DNA of 64,000 nt, taken from a virus. The stretch spans positions 32,001 to 96,000 of the IMG/VR virus record IMGVR_UViG_3300007504_000003, one strand, 5' to 3'. This document shows positions 20,103 to 49,140 of the stretch, one piece after another (position 1 is the first letter of the stretch; each line of letters starts with the position of its first letter). Both the position numbers and the translations under genes were made by a program. The notes under the pieces were generated by a model, which saw only the letters and a list, made by a program, of their open reading frames with translations, made no database searches and was not told the origin of the DNA.

Positions 20103-20426
20103 ATGCCAACACGAAGCCACGCCCGCAATGCCCCGAATGAGCGAGAGAAGCGTCTTCTTGTTCATCTGGTGCGTGCTCAGAGAGAGCTGGACTCCGCTCT
20201 GAGGCTTTGTCGGGAGGCTGCTCGTCGCGATGAAAATCCCGAGCGGAAGAAGGCTTATCGGAGAATGTCCGTGAACCTGATGCGTCTACACAGGCAGGTC
20301 AGTGAGATTCAAGGGACTCATCGGATTCAGGATCCGGTGTCCCCGGCGACCCCTCCCCTGAGTCGGGATGCGTTTTCGAGTCTGGTCCGTGGGGTTCAGG
20401 CAGACCTTGGGGTGACTGATGGCTGA
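20103..20426 (+). CDS. hypothetical helical protein
   Basis: ORF overlapping the portal start. Confidence 0.5.
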   Translation: MPTRSHARNAPNEREKRLLVHLVRAQRELDSALRLCREAARRDENPERKKAYRRMSVNLMRLHRQVSEIQGTHRIQDPVSPATPPLSRDAFSSLVRGVQADLGVTDG

Positions 20427-29346: not shown

Positions 29347-29365
29347 TTGGTTCGTATAGAGGGAC

Positions 29366-30634: not shown

Positions 30635-30643
30635 GTTCTCTAT
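30631..30643 (+). promoter_or_regulatory. putative late promoter motif TA-N6-YTAT
   Basis: GTAGGTTCTCTAT upstream of 30658. Confidence 0.5.
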
Positions 30644-30657
30644 CTCAGTGGGGTGAT

Positions 30658-31782
30658 ATGAAGGATTACCCGCCCTCTCGTCTTGTAGCCTCTCGTTGGT
30701 TGGTTGCATCCAAGTCGAAGTACCGATCCGTTTTGCGGCGGGGTCGCTCTCGCGTGGAAGCCGCCTACCGGCAGGATGATTGGACTGCGGCTGCGGCTGC
30801 CTATGAGCAGGCGGCTTCGGCTCTCCGTCCCCTCGGGGGACTTCTGGATGGGGTTACCGTCGAGCGGCAGAGTGAGCGGAGGAAGCTGAAGAACGTCCGC
30901 CGGAACCTGTCTCTGATCAAGCGGTATACGGCTCCTGGCTTCCTCCGAGATACCGAGTATCAGACCGCCTATTGGGCTTGGAGTAGCTGGGAGACGCTAG
31001 AAGATGCCGTGAAGGCTGTTCTGAGAGTCTGGGAGCGAGTGACCGGGTACCAGAGCTTGACTCGCTCCTTCCAGCACGGCCCTTTCACGGTTGAGAATCA
31101 CTACGGCTACCGTGAGGAGGAATTGGCGGCACCCTTATCGCTCCTCTCAGGAGCGATGGATCAGATCCGCTCCCGGGGGTTTGAGGAGGTCTTGTACGGG
31201 GTCGTTCAAATAGTGAGCCCGAAGAGCGGGGGGTTCTGTGGGAGGTACTTCAAGAATGGGGACTTCCTTCAGATCAACGCGGATTGCCAGTACCGCTTAG
31301 GGGCTGTTCATACGGTGGTCCACGAGCTAGGTCACCGGTTCTGGTTCCAGAAGATGACGTCCGCACAGCAGAAGGCATATGACGACGCCTATTCGGGTAC
31401 AGCAGGCGTTGTGTTCTCTCTGGGGGACCGGGAGGACATGTGGCAGGCGTTCAAGGAAGCCGGGTACACCCTCCGAGGTGCTCATCGGCGGTTGAGGAAC
31501 CCCGCCTTGCGGGAGCATCTCTCGGATTATGTCCGGGAGAGGAGGAAGGGGTTGTTGATCGTCCCGGACCCGCGGACGGGGTTCATGGAGGCCCATGCTC
31601 AGAGAGCTTTCGTGGTCCCTTCTGTGAGAAACTTCTTCCTGGGCCGCCCCGTCTCCGTGAGTGATTACGCTGAAACAGGCGGGGTGACGGAGGATTTCGC
31701 TGAGGTCTTCGCGTTCTTCTGCACCGGGAAGAGGGTTGACGCAAGGGCTCTGGAACGCTTCCGGGACGCGACCGGCCGCTAG
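30658..31782 (+). CDS. zincin-like metallopeptidase-domain protein with tag
   Basis: VVHELGHRF ... SDYAETGGVTEDFAEVF; LVASRWL at 30682. Confidence 0.75.
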   Translation: MKDYPPSRLVASRWLVASKSKYRSVLRRGRSRVEAAYRQDDWTAAAAAYEQAASALRPLGGLLDGVTVERQSERRKLKNVRRNLSLIKRYTAPGFLRDTEYQTAYWAWSSWETLEDAVKAVLRVWERVTGYQSLTRSFQHGPFTVENHYGYREEELAAPLSLLSGAMDQIRSRGFEEVLYGVVQIVSPKSGGFCGRYFKNGDFLQINADCQYRLGAVHTVVHELGHRFWFQKMTSAQQKAYDDAYSGTAGVVFSLGDREDMWQAFKEAGYTLRGAHRRLRNPALREHLSDYVRERRKGLLIVPDPRTGFMEAHAQRAFVVPSVRNFFLGRPVSVSDYAETGGVTEDFAEVFAFFCTGKRVDARALERFRDATGR

Positions 31783-31791
31783 TTCCTCTAT
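31779..31791 (+). promoter_or_regulatory. putative late promoter motif TA-N6-YTAT
   Basis: CTAGTTCCTCTAT upstream of 31806. Confidence 0.5.
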
Positions 31792-31805
31792 GTGGGGAGG
31801 CTAGC

Positions 31806-33305
31806 ATGGAAACCCTCGCCCACGCTGAAGCCTCTGACGGCTCGCTCCCTATCATGGAGCCCCTCCACAATGTGCGGGAGGTGGCTAAGCAACTCATCCT
31901 GTTGGAAGACCACCTCTTTCATCCTGAGCGGCACTGCGAGGATTGCATCACCAAGCATCTCCTGACCGCTGAGGCGTTCGCAGAGGAGGCCCGTTCTCTC
32001 GACGTGGCGGGAGAGTTTTCCGAGCTGCTGAACCCTCTCCCAGGGGTCTTGAGGCGGCTGTTCCGAATGTTTCAGGAGGAGAAGCCGGTGCAGGAAATCG
32101 CTCAAGCAGCTCGCAAGTTGAGGAAGCGATTGATGCCGGAGACCCTCAAGGTGCGGGTGGCCTCCCGTTGGTTGTCGGCGGAGCGAGGTCGTCAGGTTTC
32201 GGACCTGCCTAGGTTTTTGATGGTGGGTAACCGCATTCTGAACAACTTGAACGCTTTGAAGCGGGCTGAGGCTGAGGGCCGCCATGACCGGTCAGTAGTC
32301 TGGGCTCTCAACACGGATTGGTCTAGCATTGTCTCAGCGGGTCGGCGGTGGTCAGAGGAGGTGATTGAGACTCGGGCTACTCCCAGGGGTAAGGCGAAGA
32401 AAATTGAGCTGGCGGTTCGGGCTTTCCAGGTCAGCCGTACTCGCGACTCAACGAAGTGGCTCAAGAAGAACCGTCGCCACATTGAGTTGCTGATTGAAGC
32501 GGAGAGGTGGCCCCTTCGCTCTGAAGCTTCCGACGATTTGGCGAGGCAGTTCCAGCAGGGTTCGTTTACCGTTCACAACACCATCCACGCTGAAGGAAAC
32601 AAGCTTCAGGCTGTCCGGGATATGATCTCTGCTGCGTCGAGGGCCCTCCCCAGGACGGGGCTCGCAGGTGCTCAGAGCATGGCTTACGGCGATCTGTTGA
32701 TTGTGGGTCAGATTGGCCGGGCGTCCTGGGCTGCGTGGTACACCCCGTCGAAGGACAATATCGCGATTCGCCCCTTCATTCGGGGGATTTCTGCGGCTGA
32801 TGCTGCTCGGCATCTTGTCCATGAGATTGGACACCGGTATTGGCATAAAGTCATCGCCCGAGATCGGGATCTGGTCCGGGCGTGGCACGCTTACCACCGG
32901 AGGCTGGGGAGCCAGCCGGTAGACCCTGTGGCTTTTCCGGGGGTTGGGGAACAGCTCCCTCACCCGATCCACATGAAGATTCTTCCTCCAGGGAGAAAGC
33001 GTAGGAAGAGGGTGCTTATTCAACCCACGGTCAAGGCTCGGGGCTCTGAGTGGGTTGAGTTTGAGGAGGCTCCCGGGGTTCGCTATAGCGTGATTTCAGT
33101 TCAGCGGATTCTGGAGAACACTGGTCGGACAGGTCGTTTCCCCTCTCCGTATGCGGCCACGGATCCGCAGGAGCATTTCTGCGAGGCGTTTTCCTTCAAG
33201 GCGTTTGGAGAACTTTCCCCTGAAGGGGTGGAAGCGTTTGACAGGATCTTTTTGGGCCGCACGGCGGCGGATCGGGTAGCCGATCGCTGGAGTGAGCAAA
33301 GCTAG
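31806..33305 (+). CDS. Cys/His N-domain + zincin-like metallopeptidase, two tags
   Basis: LEDHL..PERHCEDCITKH; LVHEIGHRY...SPYAATDPQEHFCEAF; RVASRWL at 32154, RVADRW at 33273. Confidence 0.75.
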   Translation: METLAHAEASDGSLPIMEPLHNVREVAKQLILLEDHLFHPERHCEDCITKHLLTAEAFAEEARSLDVAGEFSELLNPLPGVLRRLFRMFQEEKPVQEIAQAARKLRKRLMPETLKVRVASRWLSAERGRQVSDLPRFLMVGNRILNNLNALKRAEAEGRHDRSVVWALNTDWSSIVSAGRRWSEEVIETRATPRGKAKKIELAVRAFQVSRTRDSTKWLKKNRRHIELLIEAERWPLRSEASDDLARQFQQGSFTVHNTIHAEGNKLQAVRDMISAASRALPRTGLAGAQSMAYGDLLIVGQIGRASWAAWYTPSKDNIAIRPFIRGISAADAARHLVHEIGHRYWHKVIARDRDLVRAWHAYHRRLGSQPVDPVAFPGVGEQLPHPIHMKILPPGRKRRKRVLIQPTVKARGSEWVEFEEAPGVRYSVISVQRILENTGRTGRFPSPYAATDPQEHFCEAFSFKAFGELSPEGVEAFDRIFLGRTAADRVADRWSEQS

Positions 33306-33308
33306 CTG

Positions 33309-33321
33309 GTATCCCTTCTAT
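33309..33321 (+). promoter_or_regulatory. putative late promoter motif TA-N6-YTAT
   Basis: GTATCCCTTCTAT upstream of 33357. Confidence 0.5.
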
Positions 33322-33356
33322 GGACTCCGGGGGTCGAGTCCTCTCGGAGTTGTAGG

Positions 33357-34019
33357 ATGCCCAAGGTCAAAGACCCGCTTGTCCGTCAGGCGGCGGATCG
33401 TCTTCGGGAAAGCACAAAGAAGGTGATCCGGGCTTTCGTGGAGCAAAAGCCTGGAGATAGTCGTGCTCTGAGGTCAGATGGACGGTCGTTGTGGAAGCGA
33501 TCTTTTGGGGAGAGCAAGTTCGCAGTCTGGAGAGCGGGTCGAATCCTCATCCTGAACGACGAGTCCTCTAAATTTGACGACCGGGTGATCCGGTACATCA
33601 TCCGGCTTGCAGGAAAGCCAACCGTAGCTTTCGAGTACGACCGCGGGGGTGCCCACCCCAATATGAAGCTGACGTTTGAGATAGTTTGGGATGACGTAAT
33701 CGGCCGAGAGGAGTACAAGGCTCGTCTCGGTGCCGTCATGACCGATGGGGGTGAGCGAGGGCTCGTGGGTTGGGTGGACTACTCCAAATATCAGGGGGAG
33801 TACACGATCGACCACGTTCATGTGGTGCCTGAGTATCGCCGTAGCGGGGTCGCCACTGCCTTGTATAAGGAGCTGTTCCGTCGGGAAGGGATCACTGTCC
33901 GGGACCTGGGCCCGAGCGCGAGGACCGACCTGGGGCAGAAGTTTCGGGAGAATGCCCGGCTCGCAGCAGCACGCCGGGTCGCTGCCCGTTACCTAGGGGG
34001 CAGTCGTGAGTCGGGATAA
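33357..34019 (+). CDS. GNAT acetyltransferase-domain protein with C-terminal tag
   Basis: IDHVHVVPEYRRSGVATALY motif A; RVAARYL at 33975. Confidence 0.8.
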   Translation: MPKVKDPLVRQAADRLRESTKKVIRAFVEQKPGDSRALRSDGRSLWKRSFGESKFAVWRAGRILILNDESSKFDDRVIRYIIRLAGKPTVAFEYDRGGAHPNMKLTFEIVWDDVIGREEYKARLGAVMTDGGERGLVGWVDYSKYQGEYTIDHVHVVPEYRRSGVATALYKELFRREGITVRDLGPSARTDLGQKFRENARLAAARRVAARYLGGSRESG

Positions 34020-36717
34020 AGCGGCCATTCCTTCCGTTGAGAAGGTGGTGCGTTGTTATCGTGAGACTCAGGCGAAGACGTTCAAGATTGAGGTGGGTGA
34101 CCCGATCTGGTACGGGAAGTACAAGAATAAGAAGGGGATCGTCAAGGGCTTCAAGGGGAACGACAAGGGAGATACGATCGTTGTGATCGAGCCTGACCCG
34201 AAGGGGCGGAAGCAGAACAAGGAGCTGAAGCTCTTCAAGATTCGGCCTCGGAAGGCCCATGTCTCCCCTGAGGTTTACGTTGAGGGGGACCCCGAGGATT
34301 ACCTCCGGTTCTTCCTCCGTGATGGGAGGATGGGAGAGAATTTGGCCCGGGTCTGGATTGTCCAGATGGATCCGGAGGGCTACTGGTACCTGGATAGCGC
34401 GAAGGCGTATATCCGGGGTCAGGGCTTCGGGGTTGAAGCCTACATGGCCGCGATCAAGTATGCGACGGAGCATGGGGCCGGGCTCGTCTCGGACGATGAG
34501 GCGTCAGCCGCCGCGAAGCGGGCTCGGCAGGATCTCCGGAAGCGAGGGGTTCAGTTTACTCCGGGCTACGTTTTCAAGACGCACCGGTCCTCCCATATGT
34601 TCGGGACCGCTCTTCCGGTGGACGCCTGGGATGTTCGGTCGGCGGTTCTGATGAAGTCTCGGCGTGGTCCTGCGTACCCGATCCGCCAAGCTGGCTCCGC
34701 CCCGGCTTGGGGTGCCGACAGTGTGGACGCTTTCCAGTACCTCATTCGGGGGGAGTACGACGAGGGGTTGGAGTGGGTCGAGAAGTGGGGTCTGAAGTCC
34801 TCTCAGTGGGAGGAAATCGAGGGTGGGGATGGACCCCAGGTGGCTTTGGTGAATGACGCCTTCAACGACCTGGATGACTTCATCAGTCGTCACAACGACA
34901 GGCTCCACTACCGTCACAAGGACCAGGAAGCTCGGGATTGGGCTCCGCTTGGGCGACATTTCAAGGAAGCAGGTTCGGGTCTACCTGTGGGCTGGACTCT
35001 TCGCCACAAGTGGTATGGCCGGACGCTCATGGTGGAAATCTGGGATGACCAGAAGGATGAGCAGGTTGTCCTGATGGCGACCCGAGAGTCTGTTTCTTCC
35101 ATGTCGTCAGGATGCCAGGAGGATATCCGTGCTCTCGCGGCTCAGACAGGAGCCTCGGAGGCTGACGTGCTCGTTGTACGGTCGGCCCATGCCGGGGACC
35201 ACCAGGGTCGGGGGTTTGGCCGGATGGTGTATGAGCGGGCTCTGGGAGAGGCTGCGGCAGCTAATTTGATCCTGGTCCCTGATGACTGCGAGGAAGCCCG
35301 GCGGACGAGCCCCTCAGCGGCTCGGGTCTGGGATTCTCTTCGTCGCAGGTATCCGAATGACGGGGACGCTTTCTGGGGCCGGAAGGCCAGTGAGGACGTG
35401 ATGGGTCGCACAGCGTCGTATGGGGAGCAGTTGTTTATGTTGCGGCCTGGGCAGGCGTGGTCACCCAGGTTGATGAACAACGTCACCGTGTCCACCTCCC
35501 GGTCGGATATGAACAAGCCCCGCGGCGGGTTCTGGACGTCCACGTATGCGGGGGGTCGGTCGGACTGGCTGGACTGGTGTGATCGAGAGGGCTTCCGTGG
35601 CGGCAACCAGGGGGTTCTATTTGTCCCTGGGGGCAGCGTCTTCCATATCCGCGATCTGAAGAGCTATCTCCAGCTCGCTGCGGCTCATGGTCGGGTTCAT
35701 CGCGACGCCATGTTCGGGGACACGGAGAACCTGATCGATTGGAATTCTGTCGCTCTCTACTACGACGGGGTTCACTTCACTCGGGAAGCCCTACGGGACC
35801 GTGCCTTATCCGAGTACCTCTATGGGATAGATGCGGAGTCAACGATCTGGTTCAACCCTCGGGTTCTCCAGTACAAGGGGCTCGTAGATATCCAGTCGCG
35901 GTGTCGGGTGAGAGCCGCCCGGGTTGCTCAGCGGTGGCTGGAGGGGGCTCGTCCAATTCCCTTGAACCCGGCGATGGTGGATAAGGTCGTTGCTCGGGTG
36001 GTGCGGAAGATCATTTCGGGGCTCTCCGTGTTCCGGCGAGATCGAGACGATTCTCTCTATTACGTCCGGGGCTTTGACCCGAGGAAGTGGGGCGGTGAGG
36101 TCGCGGTCTACGAGACGACCGATGTTCGGGGTCAGCGGATTAATGTCCCTGTCCGATTGAAGACAGAGCAAGAGCTATCGAATCACGTTCGGCGGTACAT
36201 CGTCGGTGGAGCGGTCAGCGCCCGGTATTCCCACGGGGAAAAGTTTGGTCGTAAGTGGCAGATGGTGATCAAGCTGAATTCAGCGAGGACTCCGAATGAG
36301 ATTATGGGGGACTTGAATCGGGTTACCCAGGAGGTCCGCTCCGTGGTCATCCACGAGGCGACTCATTTGCGAGACCTCCTCCGTCTTCAGTCCCCGGAAG
36401 ATCGGGAGACGAGTCAGCGTGACCCCGACGCCTATTACAACCTCCCCCATGAAGTTCGGGCGTTCATGCAGCAGGTCGTCGCGGAGGTGCGGGAGGGTTT
36501 GGAGGACGCCGCCAAGTCAGGGGCTCGCTGGTACTGGCGAGCCCGGAAGATCGACAAGAGGGTCTCCAGCGGCTTTGTTATGCGGGCCTTGGAGCAGGCT
36601 CCGACATGGAACCGGGTGAGGCCGTTCATGACTGAGGAAAACCGCCGGCTGATCCTCAAGGCGGTCGCGACGTCTCTGACGGATTGGGATCCTTTCTCCA
36701 TCGGGGTCCAGGTATGA
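34006..36717 (+). CDS. polyvalent protein: SH3-like + GNAT + GNAT + ART-like + HExxH domain
   Basis: IRGQGFGVEAY, HQGRGFGRMVY, PRGGFWTS...DAESTIWFNP, VIHEATH...YYNLPHEVRA. Confidence 0.72.
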   Translation: MSRDKAAIPSVEKVVRCYRETQAKTFKIEVGDPIWYGKYKNKKGIVKGFKGNDKGDTIVVIEPDPKGRKQNKELKLFKIRPRKAHVSPEVYVEGDPEDYLRFFLRDGRMGENLARVWIVQMDPEGYWYLDSAKAYIRGQGFGVEAYMAAIKYATEHGAGLVSDDEASAAAKRARQDLRKRGVQFTPGYVFKTHRSSHMFGTALPVDAWDVRSAVLMKSRRGPAYPIRQAGSAPAWGADSVDAFQYLIRGEYDEGLEWVEKWGLKSSQWEEIEGGDGPQVALVNDAFNDLDDFISRHNDRLHYRHKDQEARDWAPLGRHFKEAGSGLPVGWTLRHKWYGRTLMVEIWDDQKDEQVVLMATRESVSSMSSGCQEDIRALAAQTGASEADVLVVRSAHAGDHQGRGFGRMVYERALGEAAAANLILVPDDCEEARRTSPSAARVWDSLRRRYPNDGDAFWGRKASEDVMGRTASYGEQLFMLRPGQAWSPRLMNNVTVSTSRSDMNKPRGGFWTSTYAGGRSDWLDWCDREGFRGGNQGVLFVPGGSVFHIRDLKSYLQLAAAHGRVHRDAMFGDTENLIDWNSVALYYDGVHFTREALRDRALSEYLYGIDAESTIWFNPRVLQYKGLVDIQSRCRVRAARVAQRWLEGARPIPLNPAMVDKVVARVVRKIISGLSVFRRDRDDSLYYVRGFDPRKWGGEVAVYETTDVRGQRINVPVRLKTEQELSNHVRRYIVGGAVSARYSHGEKFGRKWQMVIKLNSARTPNEIMGDLNRVTQEVRSVVIHEATHLRDLLRLQSPEDRETSQRDPDAYYNLPHEVRAFMQQVVAEVREGLEDAAKSGARWYWRARKIDKRVSSGFVMRALEQAPTWNRVRPFMTEENRRLILKAVATSLTDWDPFSIGVQV

Positions 36718-37664
36718 GCAGTATCACCGCTGGTACCTGGGGCTACGAGCCCTGGGCGGGCGACGCTCAGGAGGACAACCTGAGCGCGGTCCTGAAGACC
36801 TTGAAGAAGGGGCCGGCATACAAGAAGCTGCGGGATCTCCGGCCAAAGGCGAAGGATCTGAAGGACGAGTCCCCGGTTCGCCAGATCCTCCTCCCCTGGG
36901 ATTGGGTGGGTGAGGTGTACCTCGTCTCAGACGCCCTCCAGGGTGTCCCTGAGAGCCTTGTGAAGCACGCCCTGGAGTTCGTAGAGGGGATCGAGGAACA
37001 CCCCGCCTACGAGGAATTCCTGGCTTCTTGGAAGGAGCCTGAGGAGTTCCCAGCTATGCGTGAGCGGGTGGAGGCGGACCTCCGTCAGGCGTTGGATTTC
37101 AGCCGTGATGGGAGGGTCAGGCTGACTATCCCTCCTATGGGTCGGCTGGCGAAATACCGGCAACCACCGCTAGGCCCCCGCCAGGATCTTGTGGACAAGA
37201 TTCGTTACCGAGTGCGGTCCAACAGTGATGGGATTGTCATCGCTCTCTATTCTGGGAGGCGTTCAGCGGGAGCGATGGTCGCGCACTGGAAGAGGTTCCC
37301 CGGGGACCTTTGCGTCTCGGATATCGGGATGCTCTCGATCACGGTGACTCCCACGCCCCAGCGGATCTTGCAGGTGTATACGTCAGGCTTGGAAGAGGGG
37401 TTCCGAGGGCTGGGATATGGTCGGGCGATGTATCAAGCGTTGATGGCGGAGGGCTGGAAGCAGGAGGGCCGCCCGTTTTTCCTGACGCCGATGTGGTGTA
37501 GCTATGGATCAGGCACGTCGGCTATGGCGATGCGAGTCTGGGATTCGCTGGCTCGACAGTATCCTTCCAGCGGCAAGGTGATTGCGGTGACGGGTCCCGT
37601 GAAGCCGGGTGTCCGGACTTCTGCGGGCGTCGTAGCGAATCGCTGGTTGGGGCTTCATGAGTGA
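36714..37664 (+). CDS. unknown N-domain + GNAT domain, C-terminal tag
   Basis: FRGLGYGRAMYQ; VVANRWL at 37629; ATGA overlap at the start. Confidence 0.72.
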   Translation: MSSITAGTWGYEPWAGDAQEDNLSAVLKTLKKGPAYKKLRDLRPKAKDLKDESPVRQILLPWDWVGEVYLVSDALQGVPESLVKHALEFVEGIEEHPAYEEFLASWKEPEEFPAMRERVEADLRQALDFSRDGRVRLTIPPMGRLAKYRQPPLGPRQDLVDKIRYRVRSNSDGIVIALYSGRRSAGAMVAHWKRFPGDLCVSDIGMLSITVTPTPQRILQVYTSGLEEGFRGLGYGRAMYQALMAEGWKQEGRPFFLTPMWCSYGSGTSAMAMRVWDSLARQYPSSGKVIAVTGPVKPGVRTSAGVVANRWLGLHE

Positions 37665-40600
37665 GACCTGTCGGTCTGCGGGTGGCAGCAAGGTGCTCTT
37701 CTACATAGGGCATCGGCCTGCTCGACCTGTCCCGAAGCGGACCTCCTGGGTAGACCGGGGACAAGAGGGGCCTGATTGGGTCCGACCCTGGTTGGATTCC
37801 CCGGTTCAGGCTGGCGTCTTTCTTACGACCAACCCGTTTAATGTAGCGACAGAGCACGGCATCATGGGCCACGTCTATGCCTATCAGGTCCCTCGGTGGG
37901 TCCTGAAGGAAGCCGGTGGTCTCCAGCGGTATGACCACGCGACCGAGGTGCTGATTCCGGAGCCCTTGTGGGAGCACGTCAAGTTTCTGGGGAAGTCTCT
38001 GGACAAGGGGGCTTTCAGGCAGCGGGTTTTAGAAGGCCAGAATGAGCGAGCCTTCGCGCCTCATAATCTGGCTGTAGGGCTCGGTGAGGCAAGAGAGGTT
38101 TACATGAGGCCGAAACCCCAGAGGGTTGCTTTCCGGTACCTTCAGTCTTCTGATATCGCGGAGCGGGTCGCCGCTCGTTACCAGAAGAAGAAGGAAGTTC
38201 CGAAGGCGAAGGGCGAGGGGACCACCACGGTGTACGAGTACAGCGAGGGTCAGGTTCAGCACCGGAATCGGGAGAAGGCGAAGCGGATTGAGAAGCTCCG
38301 CACGGGAATCGGGAAGCTGCGAGCCAAGGTCAAGGGAGACCTCACCTCGTCAGACGATAAGACCCGTTTGACAGCCCTGGCTGTGGCTTTGATGGACGAG
38401 ACCTATGAGCGGGTTGGGAATGACCAATCGGCTAAGGAGGGCCATTTCGGGGTCACTGGCTGGCAAGCCAAGCATGTGAAGTTCAGCGGGGGGAAGGCGA
38501 CCATTTCCTACGTTGGAAAATCCGGTGTCCGTCAGAAGAAAGAGGTCACCACTGCGAAGGTGGTCTCGGCACTCAAGCGGGCGATGAAAGGCAAGTCCGG
38601 GACCACGCAGGTGCTCTGCGAGGGGGATGACTGTCGGGTTCTGGCTCAGGACGTCAACGGCTACTTGAAGCCTTTCAACATCACGGCGAAGGATATCCGT
38701 GGGCTCCACGCCAATGAGGAAGTCAAGACCCGACTGAAGGAAGTCCGCAGGAAGGGCGGCAAGCTCCCGACCGATCCGAAGAAGAAGGCTGAGAAGCTCA
38801 AGGCGGAGTTCAAGGAAGCCTTGGAAGCCGCCGCTTCGGCTGTCGGTCACCAGCCCGGCACCCTCAAGAGTCAGTACCTCGTACCTGGAGTAGAGCAGAC
38901 CTTCCTGAAGGATGGCTCTGTTTCCGTGAAGCACGCCTCCAGCCGGGTCGCGATTATCAATCTCAACCACGCCACGGATGGGGAGAAGGGAGACCACTCC
39001 CTACGTGGAGTGGCTGGGTTGATCTCCAGTCTCACCTACTATGAGCGGGCTCTGGTTCAGGATATGCTGGTTCACGATCAGCCAATCCGGAAGGGGAAGG
39101 AGGGGTATTCTCTTCGCGGCCACCCCGTCATGTCTGATGCTGTAGGTGAGCTGGTCGCCGCGGGCTATCTGGAGGGGGAGGGGGAGGTCCGGCTCTCGGG
39201 GTTGTTCCTGGCGAAAAAGAAGCTCTACAAGAAAGAAGCTTCCCTGGACCGGGCGGCGGAGGCTTTTCTGTCTTCTGCCCCGGAGAAGTGGGGTCGGGCA
39301 GATCTCCTGGCTTTCACTCGGGTCGATCCCTGGTTCCAGGCGATGACTCTCCCCTCACGAGTCGCAGCGGCGGGTGAGTTGTTTGGTCGGGTTCTCCGAG
39401 CGGGTGTCATGGATCGCTCACATCCCCAGGCGGTAGCCTGGGTGGAGTCGTTTTTTCAGCGGCATCCAGCTCTGCGTCGCTACCAGGGGATTCCGGTTCT
39501 CCACGTCTCCTCGCCGGGGTCGGGTTCGCATCCCGAGGCTCGTCAGACCTATCGGGGGATTGAGCTGTATCCGAAGTTCTGGGGTCACTCCACGGAAATC
39601 CAGGACTTCATCTTCGCGCATGAGATCGGTCACGCGGTTCGATCGGAGTGGGGCTTGGCTTTTGGCGTGGCTGCTGCTGCTCTTGGGATTGACCCGTGGG
39701 ATACACCGAATCTCCCCTTCGGTCAGTTCAATCAGGACGAGGCCTTCGCGGATTCCTTCGCCAGTTATTTCACGGATGGGGATGTAGGTCGGAGGTATCC
39801 GGCGTGGAGTCGGCTCGTAGAGGAGGGGCTCCGGATTCGGGTAGGGAAGAAATCCCCCGCGGACAAAGAGGATGCCGAGGTAGAGCGGCTGGTGAGGCCC
39901 TCGCCTAAGAAGAAGCCGCCGCGGAAGGACAAGAGACGAGAGCAAATTCGTGAGGAGGATCGGGACACGGACGGAGACCGGGACACCAAGCGAGACAAGG
40001 ATATGAGCCTCAACTACAAGGATAGCGTCAGCCGGGTGGCGGCTCGTTATCTGGAGGCCCTCCGCGTCAAGACGGTTCGGGTCTTGAATACGGATACCGG
40101 GAAGATGGAGAACATCTCTCCGGAGCGGTTCCAGAGGAACCCGGGGAAGTACAAGCTGTGGCGGGACATGTCCCCCGAGGAAAAGGACAAGAATAGGCTC
40201 CGTAAGAAGCCTCCGGTTGAGGAGACTCCCCAGGAGGAAGAGGCGGAAGAAGCTCCTCAGGAAGAGGAGGGAGGAGAGGAGGGGGAAGAGGAGGAAGAAG
40301 AGGCCCCCCAGGAAGAAGAGGCCCCCCAGGAGGAAGAGGTTTCCCAGGAGGAAGAGGTTTCCCAGGAAGAAGAATCTACGAGTGACCCGGACACGGAGGA
40401 CTACGAGGATGTGTCTTCCCTGCTGGAGGAGATCCCGGAGTCTCTGACTCCGGAGCAGAAGGCAATTCGCCGGAGCGAGTTGGTTGAGGCTGCCTTGTCC
40501 GTGATGACGAACAAGTTGGCGGCTGCTGAGAAGGAAGTGGCTGAACTGGAGGAGTCCCTGGATTCCCTTTTGGCTGACCCTGCCACGACCAGTAAGCAAA

Positions 40601-41694
40601 AGGCGTCTGCGAAGCAGAAGCTCCAGGCAGCGGTGAAGGGCCGCAACGAGATGAAGAAGGAGGTGTCCCGCCTCCAGAGCCGTCGGGACACCCTGGAGTC
40701 CGAGCGGCAGCAGAGAGAAGACGCTGCGGCTGCAAAGAAGATGAAGTCTGAGCGAGCCAAGGCTCTACAGGACTTGGTCGGTCAGGTCGGCGGCATGGTG
40801 GATCGTCTGGATGATCCTGGCGGGGATTTCACTGACCCGCTGGAGGTCGGTCAGATGTTCTACAAGGAAATCTCTGGTCTGACCCCAGCAGAATCTCAGA
40901 GCCTCGTCGATCAGATCCAGGACCGAGTCCGGGAGCTTCCGGGAGAGGAGTCCGTTCTCCGGGCAGGGTATGTGGCTGCCCTCGACGCGGTGGAGGTTGC
41001 GTCTATCGTTCGTGGTCAAGAAGTCGCCATTGAGGGGCGTTCCCCGCTGATGCAGATGGCTCACCGTCTTCTGAAGACGGTCGCGAAAATCCCTGGAAAG
41101 GAGGTTGACCTTCTTGGAGTGGGTCGCGGGGTCGGGTCAGGCTCCTGGGTTGGGATTTCGGACCAGATTAAGAACCTCTCCCATGAGGATCTGGTCCGGG
41201 TGGTAGGGGCTGACTCGGACCAACACCCCTTTTCCGGCATGGCGAAGTTCTTGCTGGACTCTGAGGCTCCTGATGAGCGGAAGGCGATGGCTCGCCAATG
41301 GATGCAAGATGCCGCCTTGGACGCTTTTGGTTTGCTCTCCCCGGTGGCAGAGGAGATCGTTCAGGACAGTCGGGATCTGGGTTCCGGAGCGGGTGAGGAA
41401 TTGGTGATAGAGGTGCAGGAGGCATACGCCGGCACCTGGGCTGCCGTGGAGGGTGGGGGCGACAGCGACGACCAAGAAGAGGCCGATCTTTACTCTTTTG
41501 AGGACCCTCTTCAGGAAACCCTGGGGAGCCCGGAGAAGCAGGAGGTCTCGCGCTTGGATAGCCTTCAACGTGTTCTGGACATGCTCCAGAAGCGGTTTGA
41601 GGGGGTTCGTACACGGACTATGAAAGTAATCGAGGCCCTCCTCATTAAGGGGGATCCGGACGTGGGTCCGGTCTCGTTCAACCGAGCAACCTAA
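37657..41694 (+). CDS. polyvalent protein: ART-like + topoisomerase IB + HExxH domain + acidic linker + coiled coil
   Basis: TopIB residues RVGN, GKSG, KDIR, GH...QY; FAHEIGH...DEAFADSF; three RVAxRY tags. Confidence 0.82.
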   Translation: MSETCRSAGGSKVLFYIGHRPARPVPKRTSWVDRGQEGPDWVRPWLDSPVQAGVFLTTNPFNVATEHGIMGHVYAYQVPRWVLKEAGGLQRYDHATEVLIPEPLWEHVKFLGKSLDKGAFRQRVLEGQNERAFAPHNLAVGLGEAREVYMRPKPQRVAFRYLQSSDIAERVAARYQKKKEVPKAKGEGTTTVYEYSEGQVQHRNREKAKRIEKLRTGIGKLRAKVKGDLTSSDDKTRLTALAVALMDETYERVGNDQSAKEGHFGVTGWQAKHVKFSGGKATISYVGKSGVRQKKEVTTAKVVSALKRAMKGKSGTTQVLCEGDDCRVLAQDVNGYLKPFNITAKDIRGLHANEEVKTRLKEVRRKGGKLPTDPKKKAEKLKAEFKEALEAAASAVGHQPGTLKSQYLVPGVEQTFLKDGSVSVKHASSRVAIINLNHATDGEKGDHSLRGVAGLISSLTYYERALVQDMLVHDQPIRKGKEGYSLRGHPVMSDAVGELVAAGYLEGEGEVRLSGLFLAKKKLYKKEASLDRAAEAFLSSAPEKWGRADLLAFTRVDPWFQAMTLPSRVAAAGELFGRVLRAGVMDRSHPQAVAWVESFFQRHPALRRYQGIPVLHVSSPGSGSHPEARQTYRGIELYPKFWGHSTEIQDFIFAHEIGHAVRSEWGLAFGVAAAALGIDPWDTPNLPFGQFNQDEAFADSFASYFTDGDVGRRYPAWSRLVEEGLRIRVGKKSPADKEDAEVERLVRPSPKKKPPRKDKRREQIREEDRDTDGDRDTKRDKDMSLNYKDSVSRVAARYLEALRVKTVRVLNTDTGKMENISPERFQRNPGKYKLWRDMSPEEKDKNRLRKKPPVEETPQEEEAEEAPQEEEGGEEGEEEEEEAPQEEEAPQEEEVSQEEEVSQEEESTSDPDTEDYEDVSSLLEEIPESLTPEQKAIRRSELVEAALSVMTNKLAAAEKEVAELEESLDSLLADPATTSKQKASAKQKLQAAVKGRNEMKKEVSRLQSRRDTLESERQQREDAAAAKKMKSERAKALQDLVGQVGGMVDRLDDPGGDFTDPLEVGQMFYKEISGLTPAESQSLVDQIQDRVRELPGEESVLRAGYVAALDAVEVASIVRGQEVAIEGRSPLMQMAHRLLKTVAKIPGKEVDLLGVGRGVGSGSWVGISDQIKNLSHEDLVRVVGADSDQHPFSGMAKFLLDSEAPDERKAMARQWMQDAALDAFGLLSPVAEEIVQDSRDLGSGAGEELVIEVQEAYAGTWAAVEGGGDSDDQEEADLYSFEDPLQETLGSPEKQEVSRLDSLQRVLDMLQKRFEGVRTRTMKVIEALLIKGDPDVGPVSFNRAT
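40303..40374 (+). repeat. four in-frame 18-nt tandem repeats (A/V-P/S-QEEE)
   Basis: gccccccaggaagaagag / gccccccaggaggaagag / gtttcccaggaggaagag / gtttcccaggaagaagaa. Confidence 0.9.
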
Positions 41695-41853: not shown

Positions 41854-42363
41854 ATGGCGAAGCTGACCCTTGCGGGTGCTAAGCGAGTCACGGCTGATAT
41901 GGAGCGGATCGCTGAGGTTGTTCAGCGTGAGTTTGCTGTTCTCGGGATTCCCGAGAAGGTGGCGATGGATTACGCCTATCGGACAGACCTCCTTTCGGAT
42001 CGGATTGAGAAGGTCGCAGCGGACAACGCAGCGTCTATCGCTCCGGATGAGATCGGGGAGATCAAGCCCGGTCCTGAGGAGATGGAGTCGGACGAGTCCT
42101 ATATGAAGGGGCAGTTCACTCAGGTGGACAACGAGGAGCTGAGCCGCAAGCAAGAGTCGGGTCGGCTTGCTCGCCTCAAGGAGCTACAGGCGTCCCTGGC
42201 GACACTCCAGGGGGAGATTCAAGTTCTCCAGGCCGGTTCAGAGGATTCTGAGAAGAAGGAAGCTGCGGCGGAGCCTGTTGAGGAGAAGGAAGCTTCCACT
42301 CCTCCCACGGAGAAGGAGGCTTCCGAAGCCCCTTTTAGCCACGGCTACAACCTCTTCGCCTGA
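41854..42363 (+). CDS. acidic head-assembly/internal scaffolding-like protein
   Basis: First gene of the head operon; coiled coil; KVAA, KEAA and KEAS sites. Confidence 0.5.
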   Translation: MAKLTLAGAKRVTADMERIAEVVQREFAVLGIPEKVAMDYAYRTDLLSDRIEKVAADNAASIAPDEIGEIKPGPEEMESDESYMKGQFTQVDNEELSRKQESGRLARLKELQASLATLQGEIQVLQAGSEDSEKKEAAAEPVEEKEASTPPTEKEASEAPFSHGYNLFA

Positions 42364-42372
42364 GTTCTACGG

Positions 42373-42888
42373 ATGGTCCGTTCCGCCCTCGATTACCAGT
42401 CTCTTGCTCGCGATTTCAGCGAGGGAGACATGGTGTCCGTGGTCCGGACCCCAAACTCTCGGGGTCGGGTGACCGAGGTCTACCAGGGGATCGGGATGGT
42501 TGACGTGAAGTTCCCCACGGGGACTATCCGTTACCCGGTGGAAGACCTCATGCGGCTGGACCAGAGCAACGCGGAGGTGGCTCCTCCGAAGGACCGGGAA
42601 GCGTCCCGTGCCCCCAACCCGGAGAGGGTTGCTAAGGCGTTTGCTCGTAAGGCGATCTATTGGGCTTCCCGAGATCGCCAGTACCGGGCAACCAGGGGCG
42701 AGCAAGACTCTCGCAGCTACGCCTGTCCTCGGTGCGGTTCGTCCCTGAAAGCCATGATCTACAAGCGGGAAGAGGGCCGGAGCCAGCGGCTCTATGGCTG
42801 CTCTGGGCACGAGTGCTCGTTCTTGATCAAGCCCACAGCCATCCATGGGTGTCACCTCAATGGTTGTGATGAGGAGGCTGGGCTCTGA
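42373..42888 (+). CDS. SH3-like + zinc-ribbon protein
   Basis: EGDMVSVV...GRVTEV...VDVKFP; CPRCG...CSGHEC. Confidence 0.65.
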   Translation: MVRSALDYQSLARDFSEGDMVSVVRTPNSRGRVTEVYQGIGMVDVKFPTGTIRYPVEDLMRLDQSNAEVAPPKDREASRAPNPERVAKAFARKAIYWASRDRQYRATRGEQDSRSYACPRCGSSLKAMIYKREEGRSQRLYGCSGHECSFLIKPTAIHGCHLNGCDEEAGL

Positions 42889-45800
42889 TGGCTTTCCGTA
42901 AGTTCGCCAACGCCAGGGTCACACACCCGCGAATCTCTTCCCGGGGCTGGGGTCGGGTGCGGACTGCGGCTCGGAAGAAGGGCGGCGCGTCCCCGATTGC
43001 CTCTCATGATCTCGCCTCTCGGGCGTCAGAGATTCTCGGGGAGCGGTTCGACCCTGATCGGTATCTCCTCTCCCACGCTACGATCGTGGCTTCGGTGGAT
43101 GTGGAGGAGGTCCAGGGCGCCAAGCTGGGCAAGGTGCGGGTGGGCAGCAAGACCATCGATCGTCGATGGGGTGCTTACTACATCAATCCGGCGTGCTCTG
43201 ATCTGGTCAACAACAACGGGGATGCGTGGTCGAGGAAGGTGCTCCTGGCGAGCTACCCCACGTTCATTGGTTCCCACAACTTCTGCTTCGCGGCTGGTAC
43301 CGGCATTCTCCTGTCGGATGGCACTTACAAGGCTATCGAGGAAGTCCAGGTGGGGGACCGTGTGGTAACCCATACGGGTGCTTGTCAGGCAGTAACTCAT
43401 AAGTTCGAGCGGGATTACGAAGGGGACATTCACGCTATCGGATTCGACCGATTTAAGGATCCGGTGTTGGTGACGGGCAACCATCCCTTCCGAGGGATTC
43501 AAGTCTCTTCGGCACCCGTCAAACCACGGTCAGGTTCCAAGGCGTCCAGCACTACCCGTTATTACAAAGATCAGGTGGCTAAGGCTCTACGGGGCGACAA
43601 GCACTCTCTCAAGGATTTCAAGGCTGAATCCACTTGGGTTCGTGCTGATCAGATGCGGGTAGGGGACCGGGTTCTGGGTCCCGTCCGAGAGGCTGGCACT
43701 CATTCGGATCCGGGCCTAGCTGAGTTGCTAGGGTACTACTTGGCTGAGGGATGCCCTTTGTCTCCGAGTTCGGATCAGGGCTTCGTGCTCGCCTTCGGGC
43801 ACCACGAAGTTGATCTGGCTCGCCGTGCTGAGTCTCTGGCTTACGCAGTGCTGAACCCAAGCTCCGTGACGGTGGCTACGGTTCAGACCGGCATTCAAGT
43901 GCGGGTATACTCCGCGGAGGCATCCCGTCGAATGGTGTCCCTGGGCGGGCACCGGGCTGCGGATAAGCGGCTGTCGGAAGAGGTTTTCTCCTGGGATGAG
44001 GAGTCCTTGCTCCGTCTCCTGGCCGCTTGGTTGGCTGGGGACGGGAACCTCCATAAGGCCACCCTTCGTCTGCGTGGAACCACCACCTCTGAAGCTCTCG
44101 CTCAGCAAATGCAGCGGGTGGCTGAGCTGGCTGGTGTCAAGTCTTTTGTTATGTTTGAGCCCCAGAAGATTGGGGAAGTCCAGAGTCGTGTTGTGATGAC
44201 CATCGGGGGCGAAGATAGGTCCTTTGATGTAGTTCCTCGTCACCACGTCTGGACGCTGGTTGTCTCCAAGGGCTCTACTTCGCAAGTGGCTTCGGCAACC
44301 CCAAGGTGGGGCACCCCGTTGTTTGATGCGACGGCGAAGCGGAAGCGGTCGGAGTTGGCTTGGTGGGGTGGCTGCCGCACTCATCGAGTGGCTTCTAATG
44401 AGACTCTTCCTTTCCGTGGAAAGGTCTACAATATTGAGGTCGAGGGCGATCACAGCTACGTTATCGATTACGGAATCGCAGTACATAACTGCGAGCATGT
44501 CCAGGTAGAGGAGCTGTCCAAGGGCAGGATTATCGACGCCGCCGCGAGGGATATCGGTCGGTCGGTCTACGTGGATATTCTGGTCGCGACTGACCGGAAG
44601 CACACCCAGCTTGTCACGGATATTGAATCCGGGAAGATGGGCACGCTCTCGATGGGCTGCACAACCCAGACGACTCAGTGTACGAAGTGCGGCAACGTCG
44701 CCGTGGATGACACGGATACCTGCGACTGCATCCGGTACCACAAACTCGATACCTTCTACGACAGTCAAGGTCAGCGTCGAGTCATCGCGGAGCTGTGTTT
44801 CCCTCCTGGCATCCGAGTCTCAATCGGAGATGGGAGTCGGGTAGCCATTGAGGATCTCCAAGTTGGGGATGTGGTTCTCTCCCACACGGGGCACCGACGT
44901 GAGGTCGTTGAGATTTTCGAGCGGGACTTTGATGGTGATCTGGTAGCCTTGGACTTGGTGGGTCTCCCGCAAACGCTACGGAGCACCCCCAACCACCCCT
45001 TCTGGGTTATCAGCCAGAATGATGTGTGTGCCTGTGGTTGCGGCATCAAGCTTAAGAGCGTCCGCAAGACCTTTGCACGGGGGGAATATACTCGTAAGTA
45101 TGCCCCAGGGCACAACCCTACGAATGTCGTGTCCTTGGATGCGCCCTCTTTTGACTTTGTCGAAGCCGGGAACGTGAGGGTTGGGGACATGGTGGCGATG
45201 CCGGCCCCGCAGGGTGTGGTGGTTCCGGAGGATGTGGATGAGGACAGGGCACGGCTCCTGGGATGGTTCTTGGCTGAGGGCTGCTACATCAAGAAGGATG
45301 GGCAGCGGGTGGGCATTCAACTCACCCTTAATGCAGAGGATGAGGTGGGTGTTGCGGAAGCCCTGGCTTCCCTCCTGAGCAAGTGCTTTACTCCCGAGTT
45401 CAACCTCCAGAAGGCCACGAAGGTCCGGCTGTTGGAAGCTCTGGCGATCCCCGCAACGACTCGACAGGTTTCTCGTAGATTGGGGTTGCGAGAGAAGACA
45501 ATTCAACTGGCTTTGTCGGGGCTCAGGTCAGAGGGACTCGTTTCGAGTCGGAGGCTTCGTGCTTCGGAGAAGACGCAATTCGGGGCCTCCGGGACCAACG
45601 CTCTCGTGTGGGAGCGGCTGAGTGGTGCTCCGGCTGATTGGTTTAATCTAGCCCGGGTTCATTGCTTTGACCGGGTTGCGGAGCCCGGCAAGAAGTTGGT
45701 CGTCTGCTATACGAACCGAAGTGCTGCCGACTGGTTCTATAAGCACGCCGGGGAGTATTCCGGTTCCAAGAGGCTCTCGGAGGATGCAATTCTCTGGCCC

Positions 45801-46949
45801 AAAACCCTGCAAGCATCGATGCTTCGATCTTACCTCTGGGGGGACGGCACCGTTGACACCCGAGGTCGCCATTCTGTGTCGTCCGTGTCGGAGACCCTGA
45901 TCAGCCAGATGCAAGTGGTGGCTGCTCGGTGTGGTTTCTGGACCCGACGGCAAGTGATTTTCGAGGGTCAATGTGTAGAGCTTCAGCAAGTCGTCAACGG
46001 GACAGCGGTGCCTGTTGGGTCTGACGGATTCCGTGCTCGTCATGAACTGCACATCCAGCCTTCTGATGAGGCCACGGCGTTTTTCGGATTGACTGAGGTT
46101 GGTAGTCGAGGTTTGACCCCGGCATGGCGTACCCATGAGGGGTACATGCTGTACCGGGTCCGGGATGTGTGGACGGAGTCCTATAAGGGGAAGGTTCACA
46201 ACATCGCAGTGGACACCGATCATTCGTATCTGGCGGAAGGGATTGCCGTACATAATTGCGGGCATCATTCCCTGGATGACACTGGCGGAGTGGTGTTCAT
46301 TGAGGCTTCCTGGGTGGGGAATCCTGCGTTCAAGGGAGCCGTTCTCCGGAACGTTCTTTCTCCTACTCAGGCGATTCCCCACAACAAGACTCTCCAAGAT
46401 GTGCTCTCCTCTCCTCCCCCGACCTGGACTGAGGGGGGGATGCCGCGAGCGGCGGCTCTAGCCTTCGACTTCGGTGATCCGGAGGATGGCGAGGAAGAGC
46501 AGGATTCTCCGAAGTCCCCTGCGCGTCCCTTGGACAAGACCAAGGAGAAGCTCAAGGAGAAGCTCATCAAGGATGTTCGTGAGGACATTGAGAAGGATTT
46601 GGAGGACGAGAAGCCTCCATCCTCGGATGAAGTCCACACCAACGACAATCTTCACAAGCAAGCTCAGGAGCGGGTAGAGAGGGTTCTCCTCCGTACCGCG
46701 AGTTCCGAGACCGATCTCATCAACAAGGTCGCTCTTCTGGATGCTGAGTTTGGCTGTGTTCAGCCTCGGGACACCTACCTGACTGCCCTCCGGGTTGGAG
46801 GGCAGGCATACCGCGACAACCCGGCTCGCTTCCTCTTGGCGTGTCAGGATCACACGGGACGCCGCTTTGGTATCCCAGAAGTCAAGGTGTTCCGACGCCT
46901 TGGAAGTCTCCTCTCCCTGCTGGAGAGCCCCCCCAACAAGACCCCCTAG
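42888..46949 (+). CDS. prohead (capsid maturation) protease with two inteins
   Basis: Spliced exteins HNF/CEH...KGRIIDA...TLSMGC...C-rich...EL/C...FIEASWVGNPAF fit an HK97/herpes-fold protease; sits just upstream of scaffold and MCP; about 464 aa spliced. Confidence 0.72.
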   Translation: MAFRKFANARVTHPRISSRGWGRVRTAARKKGGASPIASHDLASRASEILGERFDPDRYLLSHATIVASVDVEEVQGAKLGKVRVGSKTIDRRWGAYYINPACSDLVNNNGDAWSRKVLLASYPTFIGSHNFCFAAGTGILLSDGTYKAIEEVQVGDRVVTHTGACQAVTHKFERDYEGDIHAIGFDRFKDPVLVTGNHPFRGIQVSSAPVKPRSGSKASSTTRYYKDQVAKALRGDKHSLKDFKAESTWVRADQMRVGDRVLGPVREAGTHSDPGLAELLGYYLAEGCPLSPSSDQGFVLAFGHHEVDLARRAESLAYAVLNPSSVTVATVQTGIQVRVYSAEASRRMVSLGGHRAADKRLSEEVFSWDEESLLRLLAAWLAGDGNLHKATLRLRGTTTSEALAQQMQRVAELAGVKSFVMFEPQKIGEVQSRVVMTIGGEDRSFDVVPRHHVWTLVVSKGSTSQVASATPRWGTPLFDATAKRKRSELAWWGGCRTHRVASNETLPFRGKVYNIEVEGDHSYVIDYGIAVHNCEHVQVEELSKGRIIDAAARDIGRSVYVDILVATDRKHTQLVTDIESGKMGTLSMGCTTQTTQCTKCGNVAVDDTDTCDCIRYHKLDTFYDSQGQRRVIAELCFPPGIRVSIGDGSRVAIEDLQVGDVVLSHTGHRREVVEIFERDFDGDLVALDLVGLPQTLRSTPNHPFWVISQNDVCACGCGIKLKSVRKTFARGEYTRKYAPGHNPTNVVSLDAPSFDFVEAGNVRVGDMVAMPAPQGVVVPEDVDEDRARLLGWFLAEGCYIKKDGQRVGIQLTLNAEDEVGVAEALASLLSKCFTPEFNLQKATKVRLLEALAIPATTRQVSRRLGLREKTIQLALSGLRSEGLVSSRRLRASEKTQFGASGTNALVWERLSGAPADWFNLARVHCFDRVAEPGKKLVVCYTNRSAADWFYKHAGEYSGSKRLSEDAILWPKTLQASMLRSYLWGDGTVDTRGRHSVSSVSETLISQMQVVAARCGFWTRRQVIFEGQCVELQQVVNGTAVPVGSDGFRARHELHIQPSDEATAFFGLTEVGSRGLTPAWRTHEGYMLYRVRDVWTESYKGKVHNIAVDTDHSYLAEGIAVHNCGHHSLDDTGGVVFIEASWVGNPAFKGAVLRNVLSPTQAIPHNKTLQDVLSSPPPTWTEGGMPRAAALAFDFGDPEDGEEEQDSPKSPARPLDKTKEKLKEKLIKDVREDIEKDLEDEKPPSSDEVHTNDNLHKQAQERVERVLLRTASSETDLINKVALLDAEFGCVQPRDTYLTALRVGGQAYRDNPARFLLACQDHTGRRFGIPEVKVFRRLGSLLSLLESPPNKTP
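43284..44489 (+). mobile_element. intein 1 with LAGLIDADG endonuclease (402 aa)
   Basis: CFAAGT...VHN/C; LLGYYLAEG and LAAWLAGDG. Confidence 0.9.
44796..46256 (+). mobile_element. intein 2 with LAGLIDADG endonuclease (487 aa)
   Basis: CFPPG...VHN/C; LLGWFLAEG and LRSYLWGDG. Confidence 0.9.
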
Positions 46950-49127: not shown

Positions 49128-49140
49128 GGAGGGAGACACA

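Follow-up and report, generated by a model that had tools for sequence, protein, structure and literature searches.

Why should a phage encode a type IB topoisomerase (TopIB) inside a very large multidomain protein, and why should the gene lie among those for the phage head? This question is raised by a stretch of 64,000 nucleotides (nt), hereafter the window, which corresponds to bases 32001–96000 of the 126-kb IMG/VR virus record IMGVR_UViG_3300007504_000003 (all coordinates are window-based unless marked as genome). The CheckV completeness of the record is 28%, which implies a phage genome of about 450 kb; the source virus is a marine huge phage, of which the record is a fragment. The gene concerned encodes a protein of 1345 amino acids (aa), P0001, whose domains follow each other in the order ART-like fold, TopIB, a region called module C, HExxH...E zincin, charged linker, acidic repeats, and coiled coil. 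An earlier note, made by a model from the letters of the DNA, had described an apparently intact TopIB embedded in a tagged polyprotein. As shown below, sequence and model comparisons leave hardly any doubt that the module is a TopIB with an active-looking catalytic site. It belongs to a large clade of phage proteins, and its surroundings suggest that it may be carried in the virion.

The identity of the module is supported by profile, sequence, and structure comparisons. The Pfam profile of the topoisomerase I catalytic core (PF01028) matches aa 201–405 with a score of 85.8 bits (cut-off 23.7; E 3.7e-24), and the same match is recovered by a six-frame search of the genome. The search of a TopIB core with hidden Markov models, which had been proposed as a check, thus gave a match above the curated threshold. 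With P0001 as the query, phmmer retrieved only TopIBs from the PDB. In the alignment with the TopIB of Deinococcus radiodurans (E 3.4e-5, single sequence), R252, K288, R348, H398, and Y407 fall in the catalytic columns. The earlier note had placed the five catalytic positions at nucleotides 38410, 38518, 38698, 38848, and 38875, which is where the alignment puts them, and the flanking motifs that it had reported, RVAARY (38164) and KHAS (38929), are both present.

For the analysis of conservation, the modules from 179 relatives were aligned with the window copy, giving 180 modules. None of the 180 shows a change in the catalytic R, K, R, or Y, and the His is kept in 179, the single exception being an Asn, which is also the residue aligned at this position in the D. 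radiodurans enzyme. The active site is, therefore, intact and under purifying selection. A family profile containing 31 members, searched against the PDB, retrieved only TopIBs at E≤0.01, with 6z01 (3.8e-21), variola (1e-16), D. radiodurans (2.2e-16), the vaccinia catalytic fragment (1e-12), and the human enzyme (about 1e-11) among the matches. Based on these alignments, the module is predicted to be catalytically competent, with Y407 as the tyrosine nucleophile acting together with the R252/K288/R348/H398 set.

Tyrosine recombinases share the fold and the chemistry of TopIBs by common ancestry, and a recombinase, an integrase, or a telomere resolvase could accordingly be mistaken for a topoisomerase. 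The AlphaFold2 (AF2) model of aa 165–435 is of good quality, with a predicted local distance difference test score (pLDDT) of 88.1 and a predicted template modeling score (pTM) of 0.81. When compared with the PDB using Foldseek, ranks 1 to 22 are all occupied by TopIBs (E 1e-11 to 1e-5), led by the variola enzyme (E 1.2e-11, TM score 0.72). Recombinases do turn up low in this list, the first being XerH at rank 23 (E 1.4e-3, TM score 0.42). Moreover, the tyrosine recombinase family PF00589 gives no match to P0001 even at E≤1, no recombinase appears in the PDB search with the family profile at E≤0.01, and both the conserved K288 on a beta-hairpin and the H-x8-Y spacing are TopIB-like. The earlier note had allowed for a better match to a tyrosine recombinase; in the fold and sequence searches alike, TopIB comes out ahead of XerH, and an enzyme of the recombinase type is extremely improbable.

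TopIBs clamp duplex DNA, nick one strand through a 3'-phosphotyrosyl bond, let the duplex swivel, and reseal the nick. As enzymes of this family need neither ATP nor Mg, a TopIB could work inside a capsid or right after ejection. The module found in P0001 is about 260 aa long, and is made of a short helix containing RVAARYQ, a beta-hairpin (KKKEVPKA.G..TTVYEYS), and the catalytic domain. Its N-terminal DNA-binding domain is cut down to the last hairpin: the phmmer alignments begin at residue 69 of the variola enzyme and at residue 76 of that of D. radiodurans, and the AF2 model has just one helix and one hairpin ahead of the catalytic domain. In many relatives, the module begins within the first 10 residues of the protein, so that no upstream part can supply the missing domain, and the reduced form constitutes a complete unit. 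A standard short, two-domain, stand-alone TopIB (about 310–350 aa) was also considered, and rejected: the N-terminal beta-sheet domain is incomplete, and only 8 of the 179 family proteins, whose median length is 1233 aa, are shorter than 450 aa.

The family itself was delineated with HMMER, 1.84 billion cluster representatives being searched exhaustively: 2595 proteins reached E≤1e-3, and 576 cluster representatives reached E≤1e-30. The 150 best-scoring representatives are 54–71% identical over the TopIB module, with protein lengths ranging from 326 to 3381 aa. Nearly all of the listed clade members embed TopIB in proteins of 0.8 to 3.4 thousand residues with shuffled partner domains, and the module may be N-terminal, central, or close to the C-terminus. 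The partners detected with Pfam include PolyA_pol/CCA-type nucleotidyltransferase, 2H phosphoesterase, GNAT, PAP2, and RNA ligase domains, among others. The same modules occur in varied orders and combinations in more than 55 proteins, and pairwise comparison shows P0001 to be a mosaic of this kind, since other members carry its modules in different orders. Some automatic annotations of the Joint Genome Institute (JGI) name family members 'DNA topoisomerase IB'.

The distribution of the clade is restricted. It is absent from PHROGs, and a tblastn search of 50,697 phage records returned only one uncultured 485-kb phage, plus a marginal match to PaBG; none of the cultured-phage records searched contains it. 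Among the representatives of 185,579 prokaryote species, no isolate genome carries the clade, and only three contigs from metagenome-assembled genomes (MAGs) do. These contigs (L011, L012, and L013) are 22–205 kb long; two are labeled Actinomycetota, one of them Lysinibacter sp. They represent either mis-binned phage DNA or a weak hint of the host.

The second part of the question concerns the place of the gene. In the window, the genes for the large terminase (TerL), the portal, a 16-kb block of putative cargo proteins, the head protease, and the major head protein follow each other in this order, with replication genes (clamp, clamp loader) 5' of the terminase. The start of the P0001 gene overlaps the stop of the upstream open reading frame (ORF; 36684–37664) by 8 nt, and two small ORFs separate the block from the head-maturation protease. 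Relatives show the same order, with the block present as a single giant ORF of 2233–2493 aa soon after the portal; for example, a 2493-aa ORF combining 2H, PolyA_pol, TopIB, and GNAT is found in a complete 435.8-kb genome with terminal repeats (G001). Each of the remaining genes of the block, the small ORF at 41854 among them, occurs fused to TopIB in some other phage, while TerL, portal, protease, and major head protein showed no TopIB fusion among 221 family proteins. The small ORF in question (41854–42363, 169 aa), located just 3' of the TopIB gene, is a near-C-terminal module of the TopIB polyvalent protein in 9 other phages. The gene boundaries in the block, thus, resemble places where a single giant ancestral gene was split.

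Such an arrangement is reminiscent of phage-type polyvalent proteins, which have been described as multi-enzyme proteins with MPTase, ART, 2H, or GNAT domains, encoded in the portal–terminase neighborhood, and predicted to be packaged and injected (PMC5512222, Iyer et al. 2017). Examples include P1 DdrB, the N4 virion RNA polymerase with its MPTase, and MuF-fused effectors (PMC5512222). LPD1 and 2H, both present in the gene next door to that of P0001, are also described for phage polyvalent proteins in that work (PMC5512222). Given its multidomain shuffling and its virion-gene neighborhood, P0001 is a phage-type polyvalent protein.

A short motif, RVAxR[YW]L, recurs in the proteins of the block and is referred to here as the tag. 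In P0001, two adjacent copies precede or begin the TopIB module, the second one (RVAARYQ, aa 170) being its conserved N-terminal helix. In the family proteins, the pattern [RK][VIL]Ax[RK][YFW] occurs 90 times in 87,320 residues, against about 2 expected from a rough estimate based on residue frequencies. In the open frames of this genome, the slightly broader pattern [RKV][VIL]Ax[RK][YFW] is found 14 times, versus 2.1 ± 1.8 in residue shuffles, and 8 of these 14 copies lie at 32154–40033, within the portal–protease block. The tags are placed a few residues after initiator Met residues, 10–15 residues before stop codons, or at domain junctions, so the description of P0001 as a tagged polyprotein holds.

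The charged linker, or module E, has the consensus ..KS.A.KED.E.ERLVRPSPKKKPPRKD..R...D.D.D...KD.S.NYKD, followed by a tag. It is found in 119 of the 180 TopIB proteins, usually immediately downstream of TopIB, and also in proteins of the portal–protease interval that have no TopIB (relatives L030, L039, L041, L042, and L065). A TopIB-specific accessory was, therefore, rejected as an explanation: module E goes with the cargo proteins and not with TopIB, and may be a common incorporation or anchoring element of these proteins.

One relative encodes TopIB twice. In addition to its polyvalent head-module copy, G001 has a second TopIB, only 27% identical to the first, in a 1003-aa protein (L009:2026-5037, minus strand). 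This second copy adjoins a GroEL-like chaperonin gene and has its own N-terminal and internal tags, and is an exception in this respect, as tags are absent from the smaller TopIB paralogues of other relatives. In two complete or near-complete relatives, G001 (435.8 kb) and G002 (402 kb), neither PF01131 (type IA topoisomerases) nor PF00521 (type IIA) was matched in Pfam searches. TopIB would, thus, be the topoisomerase proper to this lineage, apparently with no other one encoded by these phages, and the polyvalent head-module form seems to be a specialized, highly conserved branch.

Together, these features suggest a sequence of events in which P0001 would be loaded into the capsid, possibly be cut at or sorted by its RVAxR[YW]L tags (by the head protease or by the embedded zincin), and enter the cell together with the genome. 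TopIB would then clamp the duplex phage DNA and act as an energy-free swivel, by which torsional stress could be released during ejection and the first transcription of the ~450-kb genome, and possibly during packaging. Judging from gene position and architecture, P0001 is probably packaged in the virion. Injection is plausible on the same grounds, as the location between portal and protease and the polyvalent architecture fit this idea. The enrichment of tags and their concentration in the portal–protease block support the cargo context, the lack of type IA and IIA matches in G001 and G002 speaks for the need of a swivel, and the encapsidated TopIB reported for vaccinia offers, by analogy, a precedent. 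Taken as a whole, a virion-carried TopIB swivel that acts on phage DNA and is delivered with the genome is a reading that falls just on the probable side.

Several points weigh against it. With the portal as an independent anchor, 60 related loci were available with at least 9 kb 3' of this gene, and TopIB lies within 10 kb downstream in just 21 of them, which led to the rejection of TopIB as an obligatory portal-adjacent core gene; it is found between portal and protease in 13 of the 31 loci with the protease in view. Of five large records checked in which no TopIB had been found within 10 kb downstream of the portal, four encode a smaller, more divergent TopIB elsewhere (437–604-aa frame), so that the head-module location is not obligatory for the lineage. 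Furthermore, with its reduced N-terminal domain, the module may bind DNA with a different affinity or specificity, neither Pfam on P0001 nor the family fusion survey revealed a fusion to MuF or to the portal, and a folded clamp cannot pass the tail channel, so delivery would require unfolding. Finally, both the presence of the clade in virions and its activity are deduced from sequence, gene position, and architecture.

Could TopIB, then, be an ordinary intracellular swivel for replication or transcription that is never packaged, its fusion and its head-module position being incidental? No other topoisomerase family was detected in G001 and G002, relatives without a head-module TopIB still keep one elsewhere, and the PaBG protein gp084 sits among DNA-metabolism genes (PMC7824862). 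Nevertheless, this is unlikely, given that G001 has a polyvalent TopIB in addition to its 27%-identical paralogue, which makes the polyvalent copy look specialized, that the position of the gene relative to portal and protease is kept in relatives, and that the partners (ART-like, zincin, 2H, GNAT) are typical of injected effectors. Such partners resemble host-modifying effectors, and polyvalent proteins have been read as conflict weaponry (PMC5512222). From this angle, a delivered TopIB could work next to the ART-like and peptidase modules, relaxing or nicking the host chromosome and thereby shutting down those processes of host transcription and replication that depend on supercoiling. However, 54–71% identity of TopIB in the 150 listed representatives, versus variable partners, fits housekeeping on phage DNA better than an arms race, and a role against the host is rather improbable.

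The strict conservation of the cleavage chemistry would suit a covalent anchor as well as it suits relaxation. TopIB would in that case cleave near a genome terminus, stay bound through the 3'-phosphotyrosyl bond of Y407, and tether the effector modules to the DNA end. Vaccinia TopIB is known to become trapped at cleavage sites close to a DNA end. All of the clade members examined keep TopIB while their partners vary, although this constancy is to some extent built in, TopIB having served as the query with which the family was collected. A parallel is provided by the polyvalent proteins of conjugative elements, which travel with DNA via a covalently linked relaxase (PMC5512222). By extension, the anchored protein might pilot the string of modules during packaging and ejection, as a tailed-phage counterpart of the conjugative relaxase, with the tags as sorting or cleavage signals of a dedicated capsid-cargo system. 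Nothing in the sequence separates anchoring from ordinary relaxation, H398 and the full religation-competent site are kept, and no terminal recognition site was found, although no search was aimed at one; the anchor is quite improbable, and its extension to a piloting system is equally doubtful.

To our knowledge, virion-borne TopIB has so far been a feature of poxviruses, among the large eukaryotic DNA viruses. The novelty lies in TopIB recurring, strongly conserved, as a part of the polyvalent proteins that uncultured huge phages encode in their head modules; the clade is large, and its members come only from contigs of uncultured phages and from a few MAG contigs. If the packaging proposed above is true, it would be a convergent solution to the topological problem that a very large genome poses on entry, when no viral gene has yet been expressed, and DNA topology would join the known functions of injected polyvalent proteins. 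As the module is small (~260 aa), apparently self-sufficient, and cofactor-free, it is directly testable in vitro, while the tag and the charged linker provide an approach to the sorting of cargo into the capsids of huge phages.

The remaining modules of P0001 were characterized to varying depths (Table 1). Module A was modeled with a mean pLDDT of 63 (about 80–90 in the core), and an exhaustive VIA-align search with this model gave almost exclusively ART-fold chains in the top 50, with Z scores of only 5.9–3.4; these included RES, ParT, MbcT, diphtheria toxin, cholix, and PARPs. The ART-like domain of the earlier note is, thus, supported at the fold level, but the Z scores and the pLDDT are low, Foldseek found no match at E≤0.001, and Pfam found none. 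Module A recurs at other positions in 11 other proteins. Its conserved features are R20, the F55-L-T57 strand, Y74/Y76, and an invariant E97, of which R20, T57, and E97 could form a candidate triad of the R-S/T-E type. Module C is bordered by degenerate tags, SRVAII (38941) and SRVAAAG (39355).

The zincin proposed in the earlier note also stands, as a zincin-like assignment by motif. HEIGH is encoded at 39619–39633 (H655, E656, and H659), and the downstream E695, in DEAFAD (39736–39753), is likely the third zinc ligand; H655, E656, H659, and E695 are invariant in 35 zincin homologues. There are 40 stand-alone homologues of about 150 aa, many of which start with a tag. The module gave no Pfam match, and its PDB profile matches to zincins (CapP, Ste24, Zmp1) were sub-threshold. 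Look-alikes retrieved from a protein atlas for module A (Arr-ms/PARP) and for the module C–zincin region (modules C/D; ATLF) scored below 0.9, and were kept as leads only. The C-terminal part of P0001 is common to just 2 family proteins, and the whole protein has no meaningful match in PHROGs or NCBIfam.

Table 1. Features of the P0001 gene and its surroundings (positions in the window unless marked as genome).
Feature	Residues or motif	Position	Strand	Basis
Large terminase (TerL) gene, intein-bearing		16499-19828		
Portal protein gene, intein-interrupted		20419-23787	+	phrog_16240 E 6e-25, LAGLIDADG domain
Cargo block, 16 kb including TopIB gene		25603-41694	+	LPD1+2H protein, CCA/polyA-polymerase-like protein, GNAT proteins, others, TopIB protein
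Rest of cargo block (5' of TopIB gene)		25603-37664	+	
Polyvalent protein gene (P0001)	1345 aa	37657-41694	+	ORF call; frame intact in runs X1, X3, X5
Module A, ART-superfamily-like fold	aa 1-150	37657-38106	+	AF2 model, VIA-align
Two adjacent tags	RVAFRYL (aa 156), RVAARYQ (aa 170)	38122-38184	+	sequence
TopIB module (tag helix, beta-hairpin, catalytic domain)	aa 170-425	38164-38931	+	PF01028, PDB searches, AF2 model
Catalytic R252	ERVGN	38410-38412	+	D. radiodurans alignment
Catalytic K288	GKSG	38518-38520	+	D. radiodurans alignment
Catalytic R348	KDIR	38698-38700	+	D. radiodurans alignment
Catalytic H398	GHQP	38848-38850	+	D. radiodurans alignment
Catalytic Y407	SQYLVP	38875-38877	+	D. radiodurans alignment
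Module C	aa 426-575	38932-39381	+	common to 16 family proteins
Zincin-like metallopeptidase module	aa 576-727	39382-39837	+	HEIGH motif conservation
Module E, conserved charged linker	aa 716-810, ends in tag RVAARYL (40033-40053)	39802-40086	+	family alignment
Acidic low-complexity repeats	PQEEE/VSQEEE	40180-40380	+	sequence
Coiled-coil-like stretch and poorly conserved C-terminal region	aa ~910-1345	40380-41694	+	weak coiled-coil Pfam matches only
Tags		window 12420, 32154, 33273, 33975, 35920, 37629, 38122, 38164, 40033; genome 6136, 13466, 113823, 115835		
Head maturation protease gene, two inteins		42888-46949	+	Hint/intein/LAGLIDADG Pfam matches
Major head protein gene		49087-50016	+	phrog_2522 E 1.4e-52

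Intein-free homologues in a relative complement the assignments of the two interrupted genes flanking the block: the portal homologue is at L004:3045-4742, and the protease homologue, at L004:14319-16124, matches phrog_18299 (head maturation protease; E 2.8e-11). Inteins with LAGLIDADG homing-endonuclease domains are present in the large terminase, the portal, and the head protease (two), and the relatives' versions of all three are intein-free. Further downstream, a single 633-aa frame (50182–52083) joins a LAGLIDADG endonuclease, a helix-turn-helix, and the start of an N6/N4 DNA methyltransferase, and could reflect either the insertion of a homing endonuclease into a methylase gene or a fusion of the two.

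Five metagenome runs of marine or seawater origin, belonging to two studies, contain near-identical DNA, and some of these runs are possibly the source of the record. The 1345-aa frame is unbroken in the contigs of three DNA runs (X1, X3, and X5), and one run differs inside the TopIB module at 38511, 38514, and 38532, all three differences being synonymous. A metatranscriptome run (X6) gave two contigs of 151 nt over 40341–40705 only; as DNA carry-over is possible, these are not taken as evidence of transcription.

The comparison with known systems shows what P0001 shares with each of them. Disparate enzyme domains, zincin and ART-like modules, 2H and GNAT domains in the block, shuffling, and portal and terminase neighbors are all found in phage-type polyvalent proteins. 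P0001 is set apart by its TopIB, by the RVAxR[YW]L tag, and by the conserved charged linker of module E, and no MuF domain was detected in it. The earlier note had considered the fusion to ART-like and zincin domains unexpected; however, ART and zincin-like metallopeptidase domains are standard polyvalent parts (PMC5512222), and the unusual part is TopIB, which, according to a word search of the text of PMC5512222, is not discussed there among polyvalent domains.

Several cultured jumbo phages (PaBG, phiRSL1, Lu11, Motura, and NCTB) are reported to have a stand-alone topoisomerase I of the same superfamily (PMC7824862); beyond these cases, none of the papers in the collection searched connects TopIB with polyvalent proteins or with phages of huge or jumbo size. 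In PaBG, gp084 has a gene of its own (562 aa), which lies with genes of nucleotide and DNA metabolism and outside the head module; it is not a polyvalent protein, and it matches the module of P0001 with only 27% identity over 64% of the module (E 7e-3). The TopIB of D. radiodurans (PDB 2f4q, 3m4a) belongs to the same family as the module (E 3.4e-5 with the single sequence, 2.2e-16 with the profile), and its catalytic columns align, but it is a stand-alone, cellular enzyme with Asn where the phage clade has His.

The closest structural likeness is with the poxvirus enzymes (vaccinia/variola; PDB 2h7f, 3igc, 1a41), which share with the phage module the fold, the catalytic pentad including the His, and the His–Tyr spacing of 9. 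Variola TopIB is the best structural match (E 1.2e-11, TM score 0.72), despite a sequence identity of about 19%. The poxvirus protein is a stand-alone enzyme of about 314 aa with a full N-terminal beta-sheet domain, whereas the phage module retains only the last hairpin, and is found inside 1345 aa. According to a passage in PMC12188299 citing Shaffer & Traktman 1987 and Da Fonseca & Moss 2003, vaccinia encapsidates its TopIB, which acts mainly in early transcription. By analogy, the phage module suggests that tailed phages may also carry a topoisomerase in the virion, as poxviruses do.

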